Positions 37,937-46,862 of a DNA stretch of 64,000 bases are shown here, piece by piece; within the stretch, counting starts at the first letter, position 1; each line of letters begins with the position of its first letter. Source of the DNA: Chelatococcus sp. (GTDB lineage Bacteria; Pseudomonadota; Alphaproteobacteria; Rhizobiales; Beijerinckiaceae); assembly GCA_003248805.1 (NCBI GenBank), contig QFQY01000014.1, forward strand, positions 41,000-104,999, given 5' to 3'. Under the pieces are notes generated by a model, which saw only the letters and a list, made by a program, of their open reading frames with translations, was not told where the DNA came from and did not search any database. The position numbers and the translations under genes are program-made.

Positions 37937-39280
37937 TCAGGTCTCGCGGAAGGCGCGGGCCATGCTGTCGCGCAGCGGCTGCATCAGATATTCGAAGAAG
38001 GTGCGCTCGGTCGTCTGGATATAGACCTCCGCCGGCATGCCCGGCGTCGGCTCGAAGCCGCGAACGCCGGCGACGCTCGCGCTCTTGAGCCTGACGCGGA
38101 CGACATAGACGTCGGGCGCCGACGGGGCCGAGCGCATCTTGTCGTCCGGCAAGGCGTCGGCCGAGATGTAGACCACGACGCCCTCGACCATCGGCGTGGT
38201 GCGCTGGTTCAGCGCGGTGAGCCGCACGGCGGCGGTCTGGCTGTGCTTGATCTTGTCGATGTCCTGCGGCCTCACCCGGGCTTCGATGACGAGCTCGTCC
38301 TGCAGGGAGACGATCTCCATGATCGCCTTGCCCGGCTCGATGACGCCACCTGGCGTGTGGTAACGCAGCTTCACGACCGTGCCCTTCACCGGGGCGAGGA
38401 TGCGTGTGCGCTCGAGCTGGTTGCGCATGCCGCGGCTGCGCTCCCGGACGTCGTTGAGCTCCGCGCTGATGTCCTGGAGCTGTTCCGAGGCGACCTTGAT
38501 CGCCTGCTTGCGGACGCCTTCCATCTGCTCGAGCGAACGGGCGATGCGCTCGCGCGAATCGCCGATATCGCCCGTGATGCGCCCGATCTCGCCCTGGATG
38601 TTGGCGGCGCTGCGCTGGAGGGACAGGACCTCGGGCTTGCGGATGTAGCCGCGCGCAAGCAGGGCCGCCTTGCCTTCCAGCTCCTCCTTGAGCAGTTCCG
38701 CCTGGCGATGGAGCGAGGCGACCTGGACCCGACTTCCGGCGATGCGCTCCTCCAGCCCGTCGATGCTCTTCTGGTAGGTGGCGACGTCGCTCGCGATGTT
38801 GGCGCGGCGAGCCTCGAAGGTCGCTCGCTGGGCGGCGAGCAGCGTGGCGATGTCGGAATCGCCGGCAGCCGCAGTGAGATGCGCAGGAAAGACGAGGCTG
38901 TCCTGCCCGGCGACTTCCGCCCGCAGCCGGGCCTCGATCGCCTCGGCGCGCATCTGCCGCAGATGCAGCCGCCGCAGCTCCGCCCGCGGGGAGACGTCGT
39001 CGAGCATGATCAGCGGCTGGCCGCTCTCCACCACATCGCCCTCGCGCACCAGAATCTGGCCGATCACGCCGCCTTCCAGATGCTGGATCGTCTTGTTCTG
39101 GCCGTTTGTGGTGAAGACGCCGGTCGCGATGACGGCGCCCGAGATCGGCGCCGTGTTGCCCCAGACGCCGAAGCCCATCACCGTCGCGGCCAGCACCGCC
39201 ACCCCGCAGAGCTTGGCCCAGCGGGCGTTGCGCGGCACGCCCTGGTACCAGGGCTGGACATCGAGCGTGAGGGCGGACAT
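37937..39280 (-). CDS. Type I secretion system membrane-fusion (periplasmic adaptor) protein, HlyD family
   Basis: 447 aa. One N-terminal TM segment (AKLCGVAVLAATVMGFGVWG), QHLEGGVIGQILVREGDVVESGQPL (lipoyl/barrel hairpin), a long coiled-coil region, and ILAPVKGTVVKL. Confidence 0.9.
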   Translation of the reverse strand: MSALTLDVQPWYQGVPRNARWAKLCGVAVLAATVMGFGVWGNTAPISGAVIATGVFTTNGQNKTIQHLEGGVIGQILVREGDVVESGQPLIMLDDVSPRAELRRLHLRQMRAEAIEARLRAEVAGQDSLVFPAHLTAAAGDSDIATLLAAQRATFEARRANIASDVATYQKSIDGLEERIAGSRVQVASLHRQAELLKEELEGKAALLARGYIRKPEVLSLQRSAANIQGEIGRITGDIGDSRERIARSLEQMEGVRKQAIKVASEQLQDISAELNDVRERSRGMRNQLERTRILAPVKGTVVKLRYHTPGGVIEPGKAIMEIVSLQDELVIEARVRPQDIDKIKHSQTAAVRLTALNQRTTPMVEGVVVYISADALPDDKMRSAPSAPDVYVVRVRLKSASVAGVRGFEPTPGMPAEVYIQTTERTFFEYLMQPLRDSMARAFRET

Positions 39281-39311: not shown

Positions 39312-41351
39312 TCAGCTGGGCTGGGGCTGGCCGCCCTCGGGCGTGCGCTGCCCCGTGATCAAGGGCAGCACGTCGTCGCGTCGGCCGATCATCTGGAGGC
39401 CGCCGTCCTTGATCATCATGATCTTGTCGACGCTGCGCAGCAGGGTCGGGCGCTGCGTCACTGCGACGATGGTCATGCCCCGCGCCTTGGCCCGCTCGAA
39501 GGCCACGGCGAGCGCCTTCTCGCCGAGGACGTCGAGATTGGAGTTCGGCTCGTCGAGCACGACCAGCCGGGGATTGCCGAAGAAGGCGCGGGCGAGGCCG
39601 ATGCGCTGCTTCTGGCCGCCGGAGAGCGGGCTGCCGTCCATGCCGATCTGCGTTTCGTAGCCCTGGGCGAACTGCGAGATCATCTCGTGGATGTCGGCGA
39701 TCTCCGCGGCCTCGAACACCTCGGCATCGGTAGCGTCCTCCCGCATGCGGGCGATGTTGGCCTTGATCGAGGCCGGGAAGAGCTGCATGTCCTGCGGCAG
39801 GTAGCCGACGCTCTCGCCGAACTGGCGCGGGTCCCAGTTGCGCAGATCCATCATGTCGAGCCTGACATTGCCGGCCGTCGGGTTGATCGAACCGACGAGC
39901 ATGCGCGCCAGCGTGGACTTGCCGCAGCCGGACGCCCCGACGATGGCGAGCGAGTCGCCCGGTTCCAGGCTGAAACTGATGCCGTTGAGGATGACCTTCT
40001 TCGTCGGCGGAGGCACATAGAGGATGCGCTCGACGTCGAGCTTGCCCGCAGGGCGCGGCAGGCGCAGCCGGTCGAGGTTGAGCGGAGAGCTCTGCAGCAG
40101 CGCCTGGACCCGCGAATAGGCGGCCCGCGCATGGATGAAGCTGCGCCAGCCCTCGATCGTGCCCTCGAGCGGGGCGAGCGCGCGCCCGGCCACGACGGAG
40201 GAGGCGATCACCATGCCGCCGGTGAGCTGGCCGGACAGCGAGAGCCAGGCGCCCCAACCGAGCATCGCGATCTGGGTGGAGAGCCGGAAGAACTTGGAGA
40301 TGCCGGTCATCACGACATTGCGGTCCTGGGCGCTGACCTGCGCCCGCAGCGACTCCGCCGTCTCGCGACCCCAGATCACCACGCCCTCGGGGATCATGCC
40401 CATGGCGTTGATGACCTGCGCGTTGCGCGACATCGCCTCGGTCTGCAGGTTCGCGCGCGTCGAGTACGCGCTGGCCCTGGCGAAGGGCACCGCCGTGAGC
40501 TGCTGGTTGATATAGGCGAGAAGGACCAGCACCAGCGCGGCGACGGCAACGATATAGCCGAGGTCCGGATGGATCAGGAACACCGCCAGCAGATAGATCG
40601 GCGCGGTCGGCGCATCGAGCATCGTCAGGACGACCGGCCCGGTCAGAAAACTGCGGATCTGCTGAAGGTCCGCCAGCACCTGGAATTCGCGGCTCGAGCC
40701 GGTCTGCGCCGCCTTGGCCGCGGCTGCGAGCACCGGCGCGCCGAGCCGGCTTTCGACATCGGCCGCGACGCGGGTGAGGATGAAGCGGCGCATCATGTCG
40801 AGCAGGACATGGGCGAGGATCGCGATCATGACGATGATCGAGAGCATCACCAGCGTATCGAGGCTGCGGCTGGTCAGCACCCGGTCCGACATCTGGAAAA
40901 GGTAGATCGGCACGGCGAGCACGAGCGTGTTCACCATCACCGAGAACAGCGCCACGATCAGGAGATTGCGCCGCGCATCGGCCAGCCCCTTGCCGAGCAC
41001 CTGCCGGAAGTCGCGGTCCCCGAGGCGCTTCTCGATGGGCGAACCGCCGCCGCCTCCGCCGCCCCGGCCTCCGCCCCCGCCATGGGAGGGCGGCGCGCCG
41101 TTGCCGGGGCTCACCGAGGGAGCCTTCGGACGCATCGTCGCGGGGCGCCGGGGCGCCGGAGCCTCGGCAGGCGCTTCGGCGCGGGCGGGCGCGGTCTGCT
41201 CCGAAACGGGGTCGTTGCTGTTCGCGACCGCCCCGCGCCTCATCTCGTCGAGGCCCATTTCCTCGAGGCCCATGGCCCGGGGCAGGACCGGCCCCATGGG
41301 GGCGGCGGTCGATCGCGGCGACGCCGCGCTTGTCATGGGGTCGTCATGCAT
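39312..41351 (-). CDS. Type I secretion system permease/ATPase (PrtD/HasD type, no C39 peptidase domain), with an unusual low-complexity N-terminal extension
   Basis: The TMD begins …ARRNLLIVALFSVMVNTLVLAVPIYLFQMSDRVL. The NBD has GASGCGKST, LSGGQKQR and VLDEPNSNLD. About 100 aa upstream of the TMD are A/P-rich and include GGGGGRGGGGGGG. The alternative start at M73 (41135) would still retain the Gly tract. Confidence 0.85.
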   Translation of the reverse strand: MHDDPMTSAASPRSTAAPMGPVLPRAMGLEEMGLDEMRRGAVANSNDPVSEQTAPARAEAPAEAPAPRRPATMRPKAPSVSPGNGAPPSHGGGGGRGGGGGGGSPIEKRLGDRDFRQVLGKGLADARRNLLIVALFSVMVNTLVLAVPIYLFQMSDRVLTSRSLDTLVMLSIIVMIAILAHVLLDMMRRFILTRVAADVESRLGAPVLAAAAKAAQTGSSREFQVLADLQQIRSFLTGPVVLTMLDAPTAPIYLLAVFLIHPDLGYIVAVAALVLVLLAYINQQLTAVPFARASAYSTRANLQTEAMSRNAQVINAMGMIPEGVVIWGRETAESLRAQVSAQDRNVVMTGISKFFRLSTQIAMLGWGAWLSLSGQLTGGMVIASSVVAGRALAPLEGTIEGWRSFIHARAAYSRVQALLQSSPLNLDRLRLPRPAGKLDVERILYVPPPTKKVILNGISFSLEPGDSLAIVGASGCGKSTLARMLVGSINPTAGNVRLDMMDLRNWDPRQFGESVGYLPQDMQLFPASIKANIARMREDATDAEVFEAAEIADIHEMISQFAQGYETQIGMDGSPLSGGQKQRIGLARAFFGNPRLVVLDEPNSNLDVLGEKALAVAFERAKARGMTIVAVTQRPTLLRSVDKIMMIKDGGLQMIGRRDDVLPLITGQRTPEGGQPQPS

Positions 41352-41366
41352 GATTCCGGCAGCCCC

Positions 41367-43358
41367 TCAGCTCAGCATCTGCGACATGAGATGGTCGTTG
41401 GCGCTGCCGGAGCAGCCGCCGTAACCGGGCTCGGGATGGCCGCCGTCATCCTCCGGCTCCGAGGCGAAAACGGCGAGTTCCGGAGCGAGCAGGCTGGTGT
41501 CGTGGATGACGATCCGGTCGTCATCCGTGACGATGTTGGCCTGCACGAGAATGCTGGCCTCATAGGCATCGCCGCCGAGATATTTGGAGGTCGAGAGCGC
41601 GCCCGGGTCGACGATGCGCGCTTCGTTCAGCATCGTGTTGCCGCCGGTTGAGACGCCCTGTCCGCTGTCGTCGGTCGTGCTCGCCTGAACGCTCTGGTCG
41701 ACGTCGGACATCACGTTGACCTGCGTGATCGTGTTGACGTCGTAGTAGTCGCCATTGACGTAGAGGATCTTCAGCGTGCCGGAAGCGCTGCCCGTCAGCT
41801 GCCAGTCGGCGTCGGGCGTCAGGCGCGAGACATTCTGGTCCAGACCCTCCAGCAGGTTGCGCTGGGCGTCGTTGAGCGCCTTGAAGGCCGCGCTGTCATA
41901 GGTCGTGATGCCGGCGTCGTTGACGAGCCGGTTGAAGCCGGCCGAGACCTCCGCGCCGGTGTCGTCGGCGTTGCCTGCCGAGACGATCTTCGCGACGTCG
42001 CTGTCCAGCATGACGTTGTACTGGAAGATCCAGTCGGCCCGGTGGTAGGAGCCGCCGACGATGATGATGTCGTAGGAGTCGAAGCCGGAGACCTTGGCGA
42101 GATTGTCCTGGTCGTTGCCGCCCGTCCGGGCGTCGAAATAGGTGCCCGCCGTCACCTGGACCGAGCGGTCGTTGTCGTCCAGCCCGTTGAACTGGACCAC
42201 CGACTTCACGTCGTAGAAGTCGCCGCGAAAGACGTCGACCTGCCAGTGCGGCGTCGCGGCTGCGCCACGATGCGCCAGGGCGATGTCGTGGACGACGAAC
42301 TCCGCGATGTTGTGGACCTGGTTGCCGTCCGCCCGGACGAAAGGCGAGGCGGAATCGCTCCGGGCGATGTCGACCCGGTCGCTGTCCGTCAGGATGTTGA
42401 CCTGCACGATGCCGCGGCTGAAGAAGTAGTCGCCGCCGATCATCAGGGAGCCGCTCGCCTCGTTCGCGTCGACGATGAGCGCGGCGTTGACTTGCGTGTT
42501 CTGGCCCGCCTCGACCACGGTCGCGACGCCCTGTGCCGGGGCGGGTCCGTCGATGCGGCTCTCCGCCTGCGCGGCTGCGGCCTCCGTGGGGACACGCCAC
42601 GGCGCGATCTCGAGAGGGTCGATGACCGGCAGCGGCGCGTCGCTGACGACGCCGTCGACGATGCGGCCGACAGGCGGCGTGGCGGTGGCGCCCTCGTCCG
42701 GCGCCTCGCCGCTCGCGCGCCAGCCGGCATCGCGGGCCTCGACCGAGGCGATCAGGGACGTGGCGTCGCCCGCCGCATGGCGCGGCAGCGTTTCCGGAGT
42801 CTCGTCGAGGGCCCGCGCGAGCATTTGCGAAATCTCGAGAGACGTATCGACCGCGGGCGGGACGACGGGCTCTCCGTCCGCGCCGCGCAGGCCCTGCGCG
42901 ATCAGCGTGTCGCGATCCTCCATCGCATGGATCTGCTTGACCGCGACCAGGCTCTCGTATCCGCCCTCCTCGTAGGTGACGGCGATGTGCCGCGGCACGG
43001 CCAGGCCGGGACCATCCGCCTCCTGAAAAGACTGCGGCTGCAGCGCCGCCGGCTTGTAGGGCAGGGGGGTGGGCACCACGCTGCCGCCGGGCATGGGCAC
43101 GCCGGGGATCGCCATTCTTGGAATCGGAATCAGATGGCCGGGATCGAGGGGCGGCGACTCGGGCAGGAGCACCGGGCGTGACGAAAGATCGTCGAAGTCC
43201 GGGCGGGCGCCGGCGTCGCGGAGCATGGCCCCCGGTTCGTCCGGCGGACGGACCGCCGGCGCGCCGTCATAGATTTCAGAGGAACGGGCGAGCGCATCGG
43301 AGATGTGCAGATAGCCCGCGAAGTGCCAGATGGTTTCGGTGAAACCGGCCGCGTTCAT
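41367..43358 (-). CDS. Large repeat protein (663 aa from MNAAGF…), probable T1SS-associated protein; no RTX nonapeptides and no Sec signal
   Basis: ORF 41367..43490. The likely start is ATG (complement of 43356-43358). The N-terminal half is proline-rich. The C-terminal ~335 aa contain five degenerate modules G-x-N-x3-N-x-A-x-I … GGDYY-x4-I-x-Q-x-N-x-(L/M)-x-D-x-D. It ends 15 nt before the ABC gene ORF. Confidence 0.7.
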   Translation of the reverse strand: MNAAGFTETIWHFAGYLHISDALARSSEIYDGAPAVRPPDEPGAMLRDAGARPDFDDLSSRPVLLPESPPLDPGHLIPIPRMAIPGVPMPGGSVVPTPLPYKPAALQPQSFQEADGPGLAVPRHIAVTYEEGGYESLVAVKQIHAMEDRDTLIAQGLRGADGEPVVPPAVDTSLEISQMLARALDETPETLPRHAAGDATSLIASVEARDAGWRASGEAPDEGATATPPVGRIVDGVVSDAPLPVIDPLEIAPWRVPTEAAAAQAESRIDGPAPAQGVATVVEAGQNTQVNAALIVDANEASGSLMIGGDYFFSRGIVQVNILTDSDRVDIARSDSASPFVRADGNQVHNIAEFVVHDIALAHRGAAATPHWQVDVFRGDFYDVKSVVQFNGLDDNDRSVQVTAGTYFDARTGGNDQDNLAKVSGFDSYDIIIVGGSYHRADWIFQYNVMLDSDVAKIVSAGNADDTGAEVSAGFNRLVNDAGITTYDSAAFKALNDAQRNLLEGLDQNVSRLTPDADWQLTGSASGTLKILYVNGDYYDVNTITQVNVMSDVDQSVQASTTDDSGQGVSTGGNTMLNEARIVDPGALSTSKYLGGDAYEASILVQANIVTDDDRIVIHDTSLLAPELAVFASEPEDDGGHPEPGYGGCSGSANDHLMSQMLS

Positions 43359-43448
43359 GACACGATCCTGAGGGCTGCCACGGGCATCCGGCGATGGCGC
43401 TCGCAAGGAACGCCTTGCATGGCCGGACGGGCCGTGGAGAGACGCAAA

Positions 43449-43516
43449 GGGCCGCGCGGCGGCCTGGCACCGCGCGGCCCGACTCGACATCCGGCCCGAA
43501 GACCGACGGGGTCTTC
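43449..43516 (-). terminator. Two stem-loops immediately downstream of the Q/N-rich gene (candidate partial terminator/attenuator or RNA-stabilising structures)
   Basis: GAAGACC-gacgg-GGTCTTC at 43498-43516 starts 1 nt after the stop codon. GGGCCGCGCGG-N10-CCGCGCGGCCC at 43449-43480 is a perfect 11-bp stem. There is no U-tract. Confidence 0.4.
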
Positions 43517-43517
43517 G

Positions 43518-44357
43518 TCAAAGGGCGTCGTTGATGTCGCCGCCGACGACCTGCAGGTCGACGGAGTTGAACTGGATGTTCGCGCCCATCGCAATGTGCT
43601 GGGTGAAGGCTTCCTGCGTGATCGAAGCCGCGGCGCTCGCGGTGCCGACGCCCGAGAAGTCGCCATCGTCGCCGGTGATCGCGCCGACGTTGGAGGTCGC
43701 CTCGCCACCCCAGGCCTTCGCCGTCATCGAGAAGTCGCCCACGGAGCTGGGATCGTGCGAGCGGCCGAAGCTCTCGGCGTCGAGCCCACCGGCGGCGTAG
43801 GACACCGAGGCGCCGCAGAGCGAGTCGTTGTCGGTCAGGTTGCTGACCTGATCGAGATTGAAGTTGGAGCCCGTGGTCGTGAGCTGGCTCACGACATCCG
43901 GCATCACGATCGACTGGCCGAGGTCGCTGATGTTGTCGATGTCGATCGCGTCGTTGTCGGACGGCACGCCGCTGTAGTCCGCGGAGATACCGAGATCGAC
44001 GTTGACACAGACGTTCACCGCCGTGTCGACCGTGTTCTCGACATGGTTCTGAACGTCGTTCGTGTTGGTGTTCGCGTTCTCGTTGCCGTTCTCGCTGTAG
44101 TTCAGGTTGCCATTGGCGTTACCGTTGGCGTTGCCGTTCAGATTGCCGTTGGCGTTGCCGTTGACGGCAGTGTTCCAGACGCTCGTGTCGACCGCCTGGC
44201 CGGCATACTGCGACTGGCCCTGGCCCTGGTAGGAGCCCTGGCCCTGGGCCTGACCTTGCCCCTGACCCTGGCCCTGCAACTGGGCCTGCAGCTCGGCCTG
44301 AGCCTGAGCCTGATCCTGGCTCGGATCATACGGTTTCGGGTGCGACCTGTTGCTCAT
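43518..44357 (-). CDS. Low-complexity Q/G- and N/G/A-rich repeat protein (279 aa), candidate type I secretion substrate
   Basis: Starts MSNRSHPKPYDP (ATG complement of 44355-44357), preceded by GGGAGAG. AQAQAELQAQLQGQGQGQGQAQGQGSYQGQGQSQYAGQ is followed by NGNANGNLNGNANGNANGNLNYSENGNENANTNTN. There is no signal peptide. The C-terminus is …GANIQFNSVDLQVVGGDINDAL. Confidence 0.7.
   Translation of the reverse strand: MSNRSHPKPYDPSQDQAQAQAELQAQLQGQGQGQGQAQGQGSYQGQGQSQYAGQAVDTSVWNTAVNGNANGNLNGNANGNANGNLNYSENGNENANTNTNDVQNHVENTVDTAVNVCVNVDLGISADYSGVPSDNDAIDIDNISDLGQSIVMPDVVSQLTTTGSNFNLDQVSNLTDNDSLCGASVSYAAGGLDAESFGRSHDPSSVGDFSMTAKAWGGEATSNVGAITGDDGDFSGVGTASAAASITQEAFTQHIAMGANIQFNSVDLQVVGGDINDAL
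44076..44320. repeat. In-frame short tandem DNA repeats encoding the N/G/A and Q/G tracts
   Basis: Reiterated GTTGCCGTT/GGCGTT units lie at 44076-44168. Reiterated CTGGCC/CTGACC/CTGAGC hexamers lie at 44196-44320 (plus-strand reading). Confidence 0.8.
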
Positions 44358-44905
44358 GACACTCTCCCGTTGGTGATGTCGGAGCGTCGTCGAAAGACCC
44401 CATCGCATCTCTTCTGTGACGCGAAAGTGGTACCTCTTCGAACACTCCTGATATCCTGTTGCGGTTCATTTGTTGCGGTGCCGGCCACTTGTAAAAATCG
44501 GGAAAACACCGCTCTCGACTGTCGTCCGGATAGATTTGGGTCGCTAATACCAGGTCATGGCGTCCTCCCATTCGCTTCGTCCCGACCGCCGAGCGCGCCG
44601 CCGATCCCTTGCCGGGATTTCTCTTTCGACGCTTCGCGGAGGATATGAAGTAGTTATTTGTGGTTAGCGCCGCTCGAATGGCGTGTCGATTTCAGTAAAA
44701 AAACGAAGTTGCGCAAATCCCTTAAGCGGATTTGCGTATCGCTTCTGAGCTCAGCGAGATTAACGACTCGGCAGATGCTCGTTTTCTTGAGCCGAGAATT
44801 CAACCATGCTATCGAAGCGTCAACTTTGATAAGCCGTACCCATCGCCGACGGGTCGTTGTCTTTTCCCGACCCGACCAGAAAAAGACGGGGCGGAGGAGG
44901 AAGCC

Positions 44906-45724
44906 ATGTGCGGATCAGGGAAATTCCGCTGCGAGGCGGAGGCCTATCTCTTTGTCGAAAGCCTCTCCTGGGATGGCAGCCCGCGCTGCCCGCACTGCGG
45001 CGAGCGTTCGCGGCTGGGCCGCCTGCGGGGCCGCAGCACCTCGCCCGGAACCTGGAAATGCTATCGTTGCCGGAAGCCGTTTTCCGTGCGCATCGGCACC
45101 GCGTTCCACAACAGCCATGTGCCGCTGCATGTCTGGCTGCAGGCGCTCTATCTCATGGCCGCCTCGGGGGGGCGCGTCAGCGTCCATTCGCTCTCGCAGG
45201 TGCTGATGGTGTCCCAGCGGACGGCCTGGCACCTCAAGCAGAGGATCGCCGCGAGCTTCGAGGCGCTCGCTCCAGACGGGACCGGAAAGGCCGCGGCGCC
45301 GGCCGGCGATGTCGATCTCGCTCTCACGCCACAGCCGGGCGAGCCGGGCGAGCCCTGGTTGAACGTCAGCCGCTACGAGCGCTTCCGGCAGGCGGCCGAG
45401 GCGAAAGGCGGACCCGAGACGCGGCCGCTCTTCCTGGCCGGCCTGCACGGCCTGCTGGGGCACAAGCTCCAGGCCGCGCCGCGCGGCGAGGAGCGAGACG
45501 AAGTCCAGCTCGAGCTTCTGCTGGAGGCCCGGCCCGAGCGTGATCGCTCGCTGCCGGCTCACGCAGGCGCGCTCCTCAGCAGCGGCCTTCGGACAGCGGG
45601 TCCGTCACATGCCGATCCCACAACGCCTGAAGATGGCCGCCATGTTCGTGCGCAGCCGCCGCATCCGTTTCCGAGCCGGCATCTGAACCCGCGAAATATC
45701 GGCTCGCGTCTCCACCCGTTCTAG
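44906..45724 (+). CDS. IS1595-type transposase N-terminal zinc-ribbon/HTH domain protein lacking a recognisable DDE domain
   Basis: ATG 44906 is preceded by GGAGGAGG. …SPRCPHCGERS…WKCYRCRKPFSVRIGTAFHNSHVPLHVWLQALYLM…VSQRTAWHLKQRI resembles the Zn-ribbon N-terminus of IS1595 transposases. No VE.DE.Y.GG-type catalytic region follows. The last ~150 nt overlap a convergent ORF and lose the GC3 bias. Confidence 0.55.
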   Translation: MCGSGKFRCEAEAYLFVESLSWDGSPRCPHCGERSRLGRLRGRSTSPGTWKCYRCRKPFSVRIGTAFHNSHVPLHVWLQALYLMAASGGRVSVHSLSQVLMVSQRTAWHLKQRIAASFEALAPDGTGKAAAPAGDVDLALTPQPGEPGEPWLNVSRYERFRQAAEAKGGPETRPLFLAGLHGLLGHKLQAAPRGEERDEVQLELLLEARPERDRSLPAHAGALLSSGLRTAGPSHADPTTPEDGRHVRAQPPHPFPSRHLNPRNIGSRLHPF

Positions 45725-46112
45725 ACGCCAGCGAGGCGTCGATGCTCTGCAGCGAGGCAAAGAAGGCCGAGCCGGCCGCCGCCCCCTCGGCGAAGGCCGT
45801 GTCTCTGGAACTCGACAACAGGAGGATCTCCTCACCGATCAGTTCCGGCCTCGCCCCGGTCATGGCGGCGAGGACGCTCGTCTGGACCGAGGCGAGCGCA
45901 TGCTCGGGAAGACGGCCGCCCGCATGCCTCGCCATCAGCGTGACGAGAGCGGTGAGGAAGCCGAGGGTGCGGGGAAGTGGGCGGCCGGGCATCGCCGAGG
46001 CGGGGTCCTCGTCCGCCCGGAAGGCGGAAGCGGCCCGGCCGGTGCGCAAAAAGGGCGCGAGCCTGGCCGAGATGGCCTTGCTGACGGATCTGGCTCGCAG
46101 CAAGCCAAACAT
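45576..46112 (-). CDS. Hypothetical protein (178 aa)
   Basis: MFGLLRARSVSKAISARLAPFLR… It has GC-rich third positions through to the stop. No family was recognised. It converges on and overlaps the 3' end of the previous ORF. Confidence 0.45.
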   Translation of the reverse strand: MFGLLRARSVSKAISARLAPFLRTGRAASAFRADEDPASAMPGRPLPRTLGFLTALVTLMARHAGGRLPEHALASVQTSVLAAMTGARPELIGEEILLLSSSRDTAFAEGAAAGSAFFASLQSIDASLASRTGGDASRYFAGSDAGSETDAAAAHEHGGHLQALWDRHVTDPLSEGRC

Positions 46113-46280: not shown

Positions 46281-46862
46281 ATGAACCGCTCGTCCTTGCC
46301 GCCGCCGCCGGATTTCGCGGCGCTCGAAATGGCGGCGCAGGCCGGCTCGGACGAGCGCCAGCGCTTCCTCGCCCTGATCGGCGACCTCAATTTCGCCTGG
46401 GCGAACAATGAGAGCCTCCTGATCTACCTGCTCATGCTTCTGGCCGGCGTCGACGAGCGGAAGGCGGCGATCATCCACGCGACGCTCAATACGACGCGGG
46501 CCAGGCTCGACCTGATCCAGCGCCTCGCCAAGATCGGCCTCCCGGACGGCATGGAACGAGGCGAGCTCGAGGGCATCGTCGATGCGTTCACCGCCGCGAC
46601 GCGGCTGCGCAACGATCTGATGCACGCGACTTTCGTGATCGGCAGCGGCGGCGCCTTCACCCATACCCACAGCATGAAGCTGCAGGAGGCGGGAAACCGC
46701 CTGCGCTTCGGCACCCGCCGTCTCCTCGACGAGGCGAGGCTGACCGAGATCCGCAAGGCGGTTCAGGATCTCAAGGCGTTGAACCGGCGAATCTGGGGCT
46801 TCCTGCCGGTTCTCGAGGAGGCACTCGGCAAGCCGGGCGGGCAGGGCCCCGCTGCCGGTTGA
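46281..46862 (+). CDS. Hypothetical helical protein (193 aa)
   Basis: The ATG at 46281 lies within track ORF 45900..46862. MNRSSLPPPPDFAALEMAAQAGSDERQRFLALIGDLNFAWANNESLLIYLL… No family was recognised. Confidence 0.5.
   Translation: MNRSSLPPPPDFAALEMAAQAGSDERQRFLALIGDLNFAWANNESLLIYLLMLLAGVDERKAAIIHATLNTTRARLDLIQRLAKIGLPDGMERGELEGIVDAFTAATRLRNDLMHATFVIGSGGAFTHTHSMKLQEAGNRLRFGTRRLLDEARLTEIRKAVQDLKALNRRIWGFLPVLEEALGKPGGQGPAAG

Follow-up and report, generated by a model that had tools for sequence, protein, structure and literature searches.

Among described type I secretion system (T1SS) operons that carry their own cargo, those of the non-RTX substrates of PrtD/HasD-type exporters (e.g. HasA), hlyCABD and rsaA-rsaDE place the cargo gene first and combine an ATP-binding cassette (ABC) exporter lacking a C39 or CLD domain with an adjoining AprE/HlyD adaptor. 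In hlyA-hlyB, a stem-loop lies between the cargo and transporter genes. We found the same arrangement in a 64,000-nucleotide stretch of Chelatococcus sp. (assembly GCA_003248805.1, contig QFQY01000014.1, forward-strand positions 41,000 to 104,999; hereafter the window, in whose own numbering all coordinates are given unless a locus label precedes them). There, gene A (43518..44357, minus strand), which encodes an acidic, 279-amino-acid (aa) Q/N-repeat protein, stands first, followed by a stem-loop, a second cargo-like gene (B), an exporter gene and an adaptor gene. Functionally, such non-RTX operons are the nearest known parallel. Like the cargos of those operons, protein A is acidic and lacks both a Sec signal and RTX repeats. 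It has, however, no sequence or structural relation to HasA, the proteases, the lipases or RsaA; the known operons carry one cargo where this one has two cargo-like genes, and the alternating Q/N tracts of A are without counterpart among them. The reading that we tentatively favour, at a little short of an even chance, sees in A the abundant first cargo of a dedicated T1SS of the PrtD type, and a new non-RTX family. Outside the cell, A would assemble with itself, and probably also with B, to form a polymer at the surface or in the matrix, and its tract lengths would drift by in-frame slippage.

Curli (CsgA/CsgB) and Fap (FapC/FapB) resemble the A-B pair in that a small Q/N/G/A-rich repeat protein, the major subunit, is accompanied by a second, possibly nucleating protein, and in that subunit paralogues occur in tandem, as they do for A in three loci. 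They differ in that neither A nor B has a Sec signal and no gene for a CsgG- or FapF-type channel lies in the locus, where export would use the T1SS. We rejected the identification of A as a curli subunit because no Curlin_rpt match was obtained even at E <= 1, a signal peptide is absent and the neighbours are T1SS genes instead. A Fap assignment was also rejected, since there was no Fap match in Pfam, profile searches of the PDB were empty and FapC was matched only by B, at E = 0.16. The Cdz system of Caulobacter (CdzAB T1SS) has two cargo proteins, CdzC and CdzD, which aggregate on the surface of the producer; these are hydrophobic glycine-zipper proteins with leader peptides, and the system includes a transmembrane immunity protein (PMC5380434). 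The present locus is likewise an alphaproteobacterial T1SS cassette with two small-to-medium cargos, but A is hydrophilic and acidic and has no glycine zipper, and the cassette contains no evident immunity gene.

Gene A and its secretion cassette

Direct reading of the sequence and its translation bore out what a first-pass annotation, made from the letters of the window, had claimed for gene A: the ATG lies at 44355-44357 on the minus strand, the translation is the peptide quoted there, and a Shine-Dalgarno sequence, GGGAGAG (44362..44368, minus strand), is found 4 nt 5' of the ATG. A search of 5.8 billion proteins returned 299 homologous clusters of approximately 250-335 aa, all named 'hypothetical', from genera that included Bosea, Bradyrhizobium, Nitrobacter, Afipia, Pseudorhodoplanes, Methylobacterium/Methylorubrum and Blastochloris. 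In a scan of one genome per species, at least 120 species of soil and water Alphaproteobacteria carried the family, further carriers being Reyranella, Tardiphaga, Salinarimonas, Methyloceanibacter, Xanthobacteraceae and Beijerinckiaceae. The range of the family covers the Hyphomicrobiales and Reyranella. The composition that had at first been taken for a rarity in GC-rich genomes is instead a conserved family trait in at least 120 GC-rich species. Because there are about 300 homologous clusters and because synteny is identical in 71-74 of 79 related loci, we regard gene A as a real gene, and we rejected its reading as a shadow open reading frame (ORF). The 447-aa plus-strand ORF antisense to gene A (43305..44648) is itself a shadow ORF, such as GC-rich DNA typically has, and not a gene.

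On the minus strand, gene A is followed by a 159-nt spacer, gene B, a 15-nt gap, the ABC exporter gene, a 31-nt gap and the adaptor gene, in agreement with the earlier statement that gene A is first in a T1SS operon. The exporter (39312..41351, minus strand) is of the PrtD type, scoring 689 bits against TIGR01842 (cut-off 510) over residues 123-662, with Pfam matches to ABC_tran and ABC_membrane and with no C39 or CLD domain. The adaptor (37937..39280, minus strand) is a membrane-fusion protein (MFP) of the HlyD/AprE type (TIGR01843, 383 bits), and Pfam HH_AprE and Beta-barrel_AprE were matched on an identical product. When the four proteins were used in tblastn searches, the order A-B-ABC-MFP was recovered in the 71-74 loci mentioned above, from many genera and including Blastochloris and Methylobacterium genomes; the loci that depart from it are truncated contigs or orphan copies. 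One such orphan copy of A (locus L070) occurs away from any cassette in the metagenome-assembled genome SZAS LIN-11. We also observed that the exporter begins with a Pro/Gly/Ala-rich extension of about 120 aa (window 41000..41351), including a GGGGGRGGGGGGGS run, ahead of the PrtD-type core. In other loci, the homologous exporters are of comparable length (660-707 aa), but that beside the giant relative of A described below has 584 aa.

The properties of protein A are consistent with a substrate of this exporter. It has a mass of 28.5 kDa, a computed isoelectric point (pI) of about 4.05 and a grand average of hydropathy of -0.51, which falls to -1.39 for residues 1-105. The N-terminus, MSNRSHPKPYDPSQ, is not hydrophobic, and neither a Sec/Tat signal nor a transmembrane segment was found by inspection of the N-terminus and Kyte-Doolittle analysis (maximum 19-residue mean, 0.93). 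RTX nonapeptides (GGxGxDxUx) are absent from proteins A and B and occur once across 113 homologues of A; as A had no match to HemolysinCabind or to any other Pfam family, we rejected its classification as an RTX protein. The protein ends in ...GGDINDAL. The uncleaved C-terminal secretion signals of proteases, lipases and HasA close with an acidic residue and then hydrophobic ones. By such a definition, a [DE]-x-hydrophobic end is present in 46 of 113 family members, and an acidic and then a hydrophobic residue fall within the last six residues in 86 of 113. To judge from these sequence features, A is likely to be exported by the adjacent system.

The spacer between A and B folds better than shuffled sequence (z = -2.9), and contains a 13-bp GC hairpin (43449..43480, minus strand) about 40 nt after the stop codon of gene A. 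Of 72 loci, 71 have an equivalent hairpin no more than about 50 nt from the stop codon of A, with a median free energy of -28 kcal/mol, as against -18 kcal/mol for coding controls. The U tract that follows is weak in the window and in many other loci; because at least four U in nine nucleotides were counted in only 30 of the 72, we rejected the label of canonical terminator. With a clear U tract in only some loci, the hairpin was taken as a candidate attenuator or stabilizer of the mRNA 3' end, and it is possible that it acts as either. Such an element would fit production of A in excess of B and the transporter. The idea that gene A encodes an abundant first cargo, raised in the first-pass annotation, is supported by the fixed gene order and by the hairpin after its stop codon. 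A scan of positions 43300-45000 against Rfam gave no match, and a search for sigma-70 promoters found none upstream of gene A.

Alternating Gln and Asn tracts and their length variation

The Q- and N-rich low complexity of protein A, which had been noticed from the sequence, proved to be a strict alternation. Residues 14-54, QDQAQAQAELQAQLQGQGQGQGQAQGQGSYQGQGQSQYAGQ, form a (Q-x)n tract (coding DNA 44196..44318, minus strand) where 18 of the 21 places in one phase are Q and the 20 places in the other phase contain no Q. The (N-x)n tract of residues 62-108 (44034..44174, minus strand) has N at 20 of 24 places in one phase and at 0 of 23 in the other. Given the composition, the probability that all Q or all N would fall in a single phase is about 1e-5 to 1e-6. 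In 113 A sequences, conservation is at least 90% at the Q and N positions. Between these stand variable residues, drawn from G, A, L and D in the Q tract and from G, E, D, K, L and A in the N tract. Since the Q/N positions are kept and the residues between them are free to change, selection acts on two polar faces rather than on bulk composition.

A protein is considered Q/N-rich by the criterion of Michelitsch and Weissman if it has at least 30 Q + N in 80 residues. The best 80-residue window of A has 33, with four charged residues, and the threshold was reached by 112 of the 113 family members, a likeness to the Q/N prion domains and polar zippers of eukaryotes. Prion domains differ from A in several ways: a strict period-2 alternation is atypical of them, they are cytoplasmic whereas A is presumed to be secreted, and most homologues of A carry many charges in the tract (family median, 15 charged residues per 80 aa). 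The almost uncharged tract of the window protein is a property of its Bosea-like clade. As most homologues have many charged residues in the N tract, unlike yeast prion domains, the analogy with prion domains is weakened. In a survey of Rhizobiales, QN-rich proteins made up 0.2-1.4% of proteomes and were mostly membrane or secreted proteins (PMC5922492).

In the DNA, Tandem Repeats Finder reported arrays at 44075-44163 and 44214-44318, close to the 44076-44320 interval given in the first-pass annotation, with periods of 6, 12 and 18 nt. The positions and the 6-nt unit of the earlier description therefore stood, and its 9-nt unit did not, as no 9-nt period was found in the gene A tracts. The match within arrays was only 68-76% for the long ones and reached 94% over 23 nt, and the longest perfect tandem runs in the gene were 18 nt (3.0 copies of a 6-nt unit) and 16 nt. 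The repeat units are broken by synonymous codon variation (GGC/GGT/GGG, CAG/CAA and AAC/AAT). Because this degeneracy arises through synonymous codons, these are not classical microsatellites, a label that had overstated the case, and the tract DNA is a set of degenerate coding repeats maintained at the protein level.

A comparison of close relatives for repeat-number variation, proposed with the first-pass annotation, nevertheless revealed the in-frame polymorphism that it had anticipated. Between proteins at least 90% identical, we counted five in-frame indels (-8, +2, -4, +2 and +2 aa) in four lineages. All five are multiples of 6 nt and lie inside the Q or N tracts, which together account for about 29% of the length of the protein. 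At 90% identity, the cluster of the window protein contains three alleles, of 279, 271 and 281 aa. In the 271-aa allele, present in two independent assemblies (L007 and L008), alignment of the window DNA with L007 and L009 showed the deletion of one 24-nt unit, AACGGCAACGCCAACGGCAATCTG (NGNANGNL; 44139..44162, minus strand), of which the first 17 nt recur exactly where the next unit begins. The 281-aa allele (L009 and L010) has one extra hexamer, encoding a Q-G pair in the Q tract, inserted near 44240. Over 6.1 kb, the locus is about 99% identical, and each allele's alignment has only one further gap, of 1 nt; this gap was not located, and a site outside gene A is presumed because the frame of both alleles is intact. 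Among the other lineages, Bosea sp. TND4EK4 has a 4-aa deletion in the Q tract and Nitrobacter a 2-aa insertion in the N tract, with no difference otherwise in either, and Blastochloris has a 2-aa insertion in the N tract. On the scale of the family, 96 full-length homologues have between 119 and 182 aa ahead of the conserved MPDVV motif, whereas their C-terminal parts differ less, at 112 to 145 aa.

Tract length would on this evidence drift by in-frame slippage between imperfect repeats of 6, 12 and 24 nt. In this, A resembles bacterial surface proteins of variable repeat length, in which near-identical strains differ by in-frame indels that fall only in the repeats; it differs from them in that its repeats are short and degenerate (at most 18 nt perfect) and provide no frameshifting on/off switch. 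We rejected the interpretation of gene A as a phase-variable contingency gene because its longest perfect run of a 6-nt unit is 18 nt and its indels are all multiples of 6 nt.

The C-terminal module, protein B and models of assembly

All family members follow a common plan: a short N-terminus with K-x-D-P; the (Q-x)n tract; a short aromatic linker; the (N-x)n tract, grading into (x-N-x-hydrophobic)n and followed by a V-x-V-x-V-D-L segment; and a conserved C-terminal module with the motifs IMPDVVxQ, GNxFNxDQVNNLxDND, FSM..A..GG and QEAFTQxIxxGANIQFNS. In the window, this module comprises residues 106-279 (43521..44042, minus strand), ends in DAL and was delimited by family alignments and by its tandem copies in giant relatives; the conserved motifs that it carries there are IMPDVVxQ, NFNxDQVxNLxDND and QEAFTQxIxxGANIQFNS. 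Protein A itself has no relative in Pfam, NCBIfam or the PDB. Scans of A, B and the flanking genes of no known family against Pfam, NCBIfam and PADLOC gave nothing meaningful, and sequence and profile searches of the PDB with the whole of A, its C-terminal module, B and the neighbouring product up193 returned low-complexity noise only, such as the NANP-type repeat of circumsporozoite protein and the QA repeats of TCERG1. Literature searches on T1SS, Q/N repeats, prion-like or amyloid proteins of Rhizobiales and the motif strings yielded no description of the A family or its motifs.

A profile of residues 106-279 matched 246 proteins among 1.84 billion representatives, and these included giants of 657-1605 aa with 3-12 separate matching stretches, in which the motifs are spaced with a period of approximately 130-160 aa. 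The giants (P0219-P0232) are without Q/N tracts, having 14-20 Q + N per 80 aa, and contain no Pfam domain; among those inspected, GEDDLA or a near variant is the usual C-terminal ending. One giant, of 1578 aa and 11 matched stretches (L091:1863-6599, GCA_039180125.1), occupies the A position of a cassette; the next genes encode a clear B homologue (E = 7e-47 at 100% hhalign probability), then an ABC exporter and then an adaptor. In three further loci, two or three A paralogues stand in tandem upstream of B (L067:6952-9971 of Reyranella sp., L065 and L077). Because the same slot can be filled either by many covalently joined modules or by single modules that bear tracts, we think that the tracts may mediate non-covalent association between subunits.

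Predictions of the structure of A were uninformative about its fold. AlphaFold2, with 113 homologues, gave a mean pLDDT of 50, a pTM of 0.22 and essentially no secondary structure, and on a charge-hydropathy (Uversky) plot residues 1-105 fell on the disordered side and the C-terminal 174 residues on the folded side. A poor predicted monomer fold would fit a cargo that remains unfolded until it is exported and assembled. It would also fit an exoprotein that stays soluble and for the most part disordered, and that uses its Asn/Asp/Glu/Gln arrays to bind exopolysaccharide, Ca2+ or other metals. Such a protein would modulate the matrix in the manner of the Rhizobium Rap proteins, without polymerizing, and its tracts would serve as hydrophilic spacers or ligand-binding surfaces. 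We consider this explanation credible but rather doubtful. The predicted disorder of the N-terminal half speaks for it, as do the very acidic (pI about 4), D- and N-rich composition of A, the homologues with (D/E)-N-K-hydrophobic repeats and the polysaccharide genes that adjoin the cassette in Methylobacterium and Blastochloris, and the PrsDE-secreted Rap proteins (PMC9298526) provide a precedent within the Rhizobiales. Against a soluble binder stands the strict period-2 phase, which is maintained over 40-47 residues around variable intervening ones and points to a structural face and not to a bulk composition; the tandem-array relatives and tandem paralogues resemble structural subunits, and no Ra/CHDL or other lectin domain was found in A with Pfam.

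Gene B (41367..43358, minus strand) encodes a 663-aa acidic repeat protein, predicted to be all-beta, and its start at 43358 is supported by gene callers, by the N-terminus of the family and by an AGGA sequence 8 nt upstream. A mechanically called 707-aa ORF (start at 43490, adding window 43359..43490) would run through the hairpin and was rejected in favour of this start. Protein B has a pI of 4.25 and no signal peptide, transmembrane segment or RTX motif, and it contains six units ending in GGDYY....I.Q.N...D.D. The AlphaFold2 model (47 homologues; pTM 0.71) was confidently all-beta over residues 120-625, with one 23-residue strand in each unit, and disordered in the first 119 and last 38 residues. 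No family or PDB relative was found in Pfam, NCBIfam and PDB searches. Residues 1-30 are almost invariant (M..GG.TETIWHFAGYLHI..AR) and lead into a Pro-rich, disordered linker some 90 aa long, an arrangement that recalls, by analogy, the N-terminal retention modules of surface-anchored T1SS adhesins.

It could be supposed from this N-terminal region that A and B form a surface adhesin, with B held at the outer membrane by its N-terminal motif in the manner of LapA and A serving as an extensible Q/N/G tether of repeat-tuned length. Besides the invariant motif and its linker, the polymorphic tract length and the resemblance of the giant multi-module relatives to T1SS adhesins would agree with this arrangement. 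We judge it improbable all the same: LapG/LapD-type or other retention machinery was not seen in the loci, no adhesin-type Pfam domain was found, and A is a separate small protein and not a part of B.

We therefore return to the reading that A is a cargo which polymerizes after export, and which we favour because its module is reused in tandem arrays, its polar faces are conserved and its paralogues occur in tandem. According to this model, A would be synthesized without a Sec signal, held unfolded in the cytoplasm and sent out with its C-terminus leading, by way of the ABC exporter, the adaptor and a channel of the outer membrane whose gene lies elsewhere; outside the cell, it would self-associate to build a polymer at the surface or in the matrix. 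The building unit would be the C-terminal module, some 170 aa long, of which relatives hold 3-12 covalent tandem copies, and the N-terminal tracts would present all-Gln and all-Asn faces as polar-zipper segments that join single-module subunits. B, co-secreted, predicted to be all-beta and sharing with A a short Q-x-N...L-x-D-x-D motif (seen by BLASTP and in two hhalign runs), is proposed as its partner, perhaps as base, nucleator or anchor. Polymerization of A is plausible to us from these sequence patterns, though somewhat short of probable.

Several results weigh against this model. The outer-membrane channel gene is absent from the locus, the U tract after the hairpin is weak, and the high charge of most homologues' N tracts speaks against aggregation of the classical Q/N prion type. 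Homology between A and B was not established (hhalign E about 0.016, probability about 3%), and the shared motif was kept as a lead. Foldseek comparison of the B model with the PDB and BFVD gave no match at E <= 0.001 and TM-scores of at most 0.15, the top match being FapC at a non-significant E of 0.16 (TM-score 0.05-0.15); we therefore claim no beta-solenoid or fibre architecture for B. The failure of AlphaFold2 to fold A may reflect a shallow alignment (Neff about 3) instead of an unfolded cargo, and we found no paper on the expression, export or assembly of any member of the A family.

That A is a true amyloid is a possibility, but an unlikely one. A bolder version of the model, which we regard as speculative and likewise unlikely, would make the cassette a new T1SS-driven route to an extracellular cross-beta, functional-amyloid-like fibre. 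B, with its six beta units, would be exported first or retained at the surface and act as a template; A, as one distantly related unit with Gln and Asn polar-zipper strands, would polymerize by adding onto it; the giants would be the concatenated form; and slippage in the tracts would tune subunit spacing or surface properties between strains.

Neighbouring genes and significance of the cassette

Two small genes accompany the cassette upstream: up193 (46281..46862, plus strand; 193 aa), which ORF clustering placed no further than about 2 kb from gene A in 74 of 79 loci, and up178 (45576..46112, minus strand; 178 aa), whose cluster is present in 69 of 79. Their orientation relative to the cassette varies between loci. 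The product of up193 had no match in Pfam, NCBIfam, PADLOC or the PDB and that of up178 had no family match; they could be regulators, chaperones or immunity proteins. The last of these roles would suit a model in which A, alone or with B, acts as a bacteriocin or contact-dependent toxin that leaves through the T1SS, like CdzC/CdzD, and one of the small co-conserved genes provides immunity. A T1SS cassette with two cargo genes and small genes of no known family, together with the surface aggregation of the Cdz proteins noted above, lends this idea what support it has, and we nonetheless consider it very improbable. It is opposed by the hydrophilic, acidic character of A and its lack of a hydrophobic glycine zipper, by an exporter of the PrtD type, which takes C-terminal signals, and not of the leader-processing type, and by a synteny that is stable across genera rather than variable between strains. 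Pfam gave no transmembrane or other sign of an immunity gene, although transmembrane prediction was not run on up193 and up178.

The cassette is also adjoined by a gene for a 272-aa protein whose only domain is the zinc ribbon of the IS1595 transposase (44906..45724, plus strand; PF12760, E = 5e-9), with no DDE domain detected; of the 79 loci, 26 have it in this place, among them loci of Bosea, Reyranella and Salinarimonas. Its retention beside the cassette in 26 loci, and a zinc ribbon without DDE domain, suggest a domesticated DNA-binding protein and possible regulator rather than a mobile element. LuxR-type regulators accompany the cassette in approximately 38 loci. Directly after the adaptor gene, and on the same strand, 40 of 79 loci have a GNAT (Acetyltransf_6)-TPR gene (e.g. 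L048:14409-15977 and L011:16360-18267), which is absent from the window and its Bosea-like clade and whose product may be an enzyme that modifies cargo or polysaccharide. In L092 (Methylobacterium sp. DM1) and L011 (Blastochloris tepida), the cassette is flanked by glycosyltransferase, WecG and Bac_transf genes with a HisKA_3/LuxR two-component pair, or by GH39 genes. Such flanking polysaccharide genes hint at a link to exopolysaccharide production.

Taken as a whole, the locus is a conserved, previously unannotated six-gene module with two cargo families of no known relatives. If our reading of it is correct, Bosea, Bradyrhizobium, Nitrobacter, Afipia, Methylobacterium, Reyranella and Blastochloris, which are environmentally and agriculturally important Alphaproteobacteria, share a dedicated secretion cassette that has gone unannotated, and description of both cargo families would close an annotation gap in hundreds of genomes. 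The polymorphism in tract length offers a ready strain marker. The family would add a non-RTX class of cargo to type I secretion, and would provide a tractable bacterial test case for alternating Gln and Asn strands as extracellular polar zippers.

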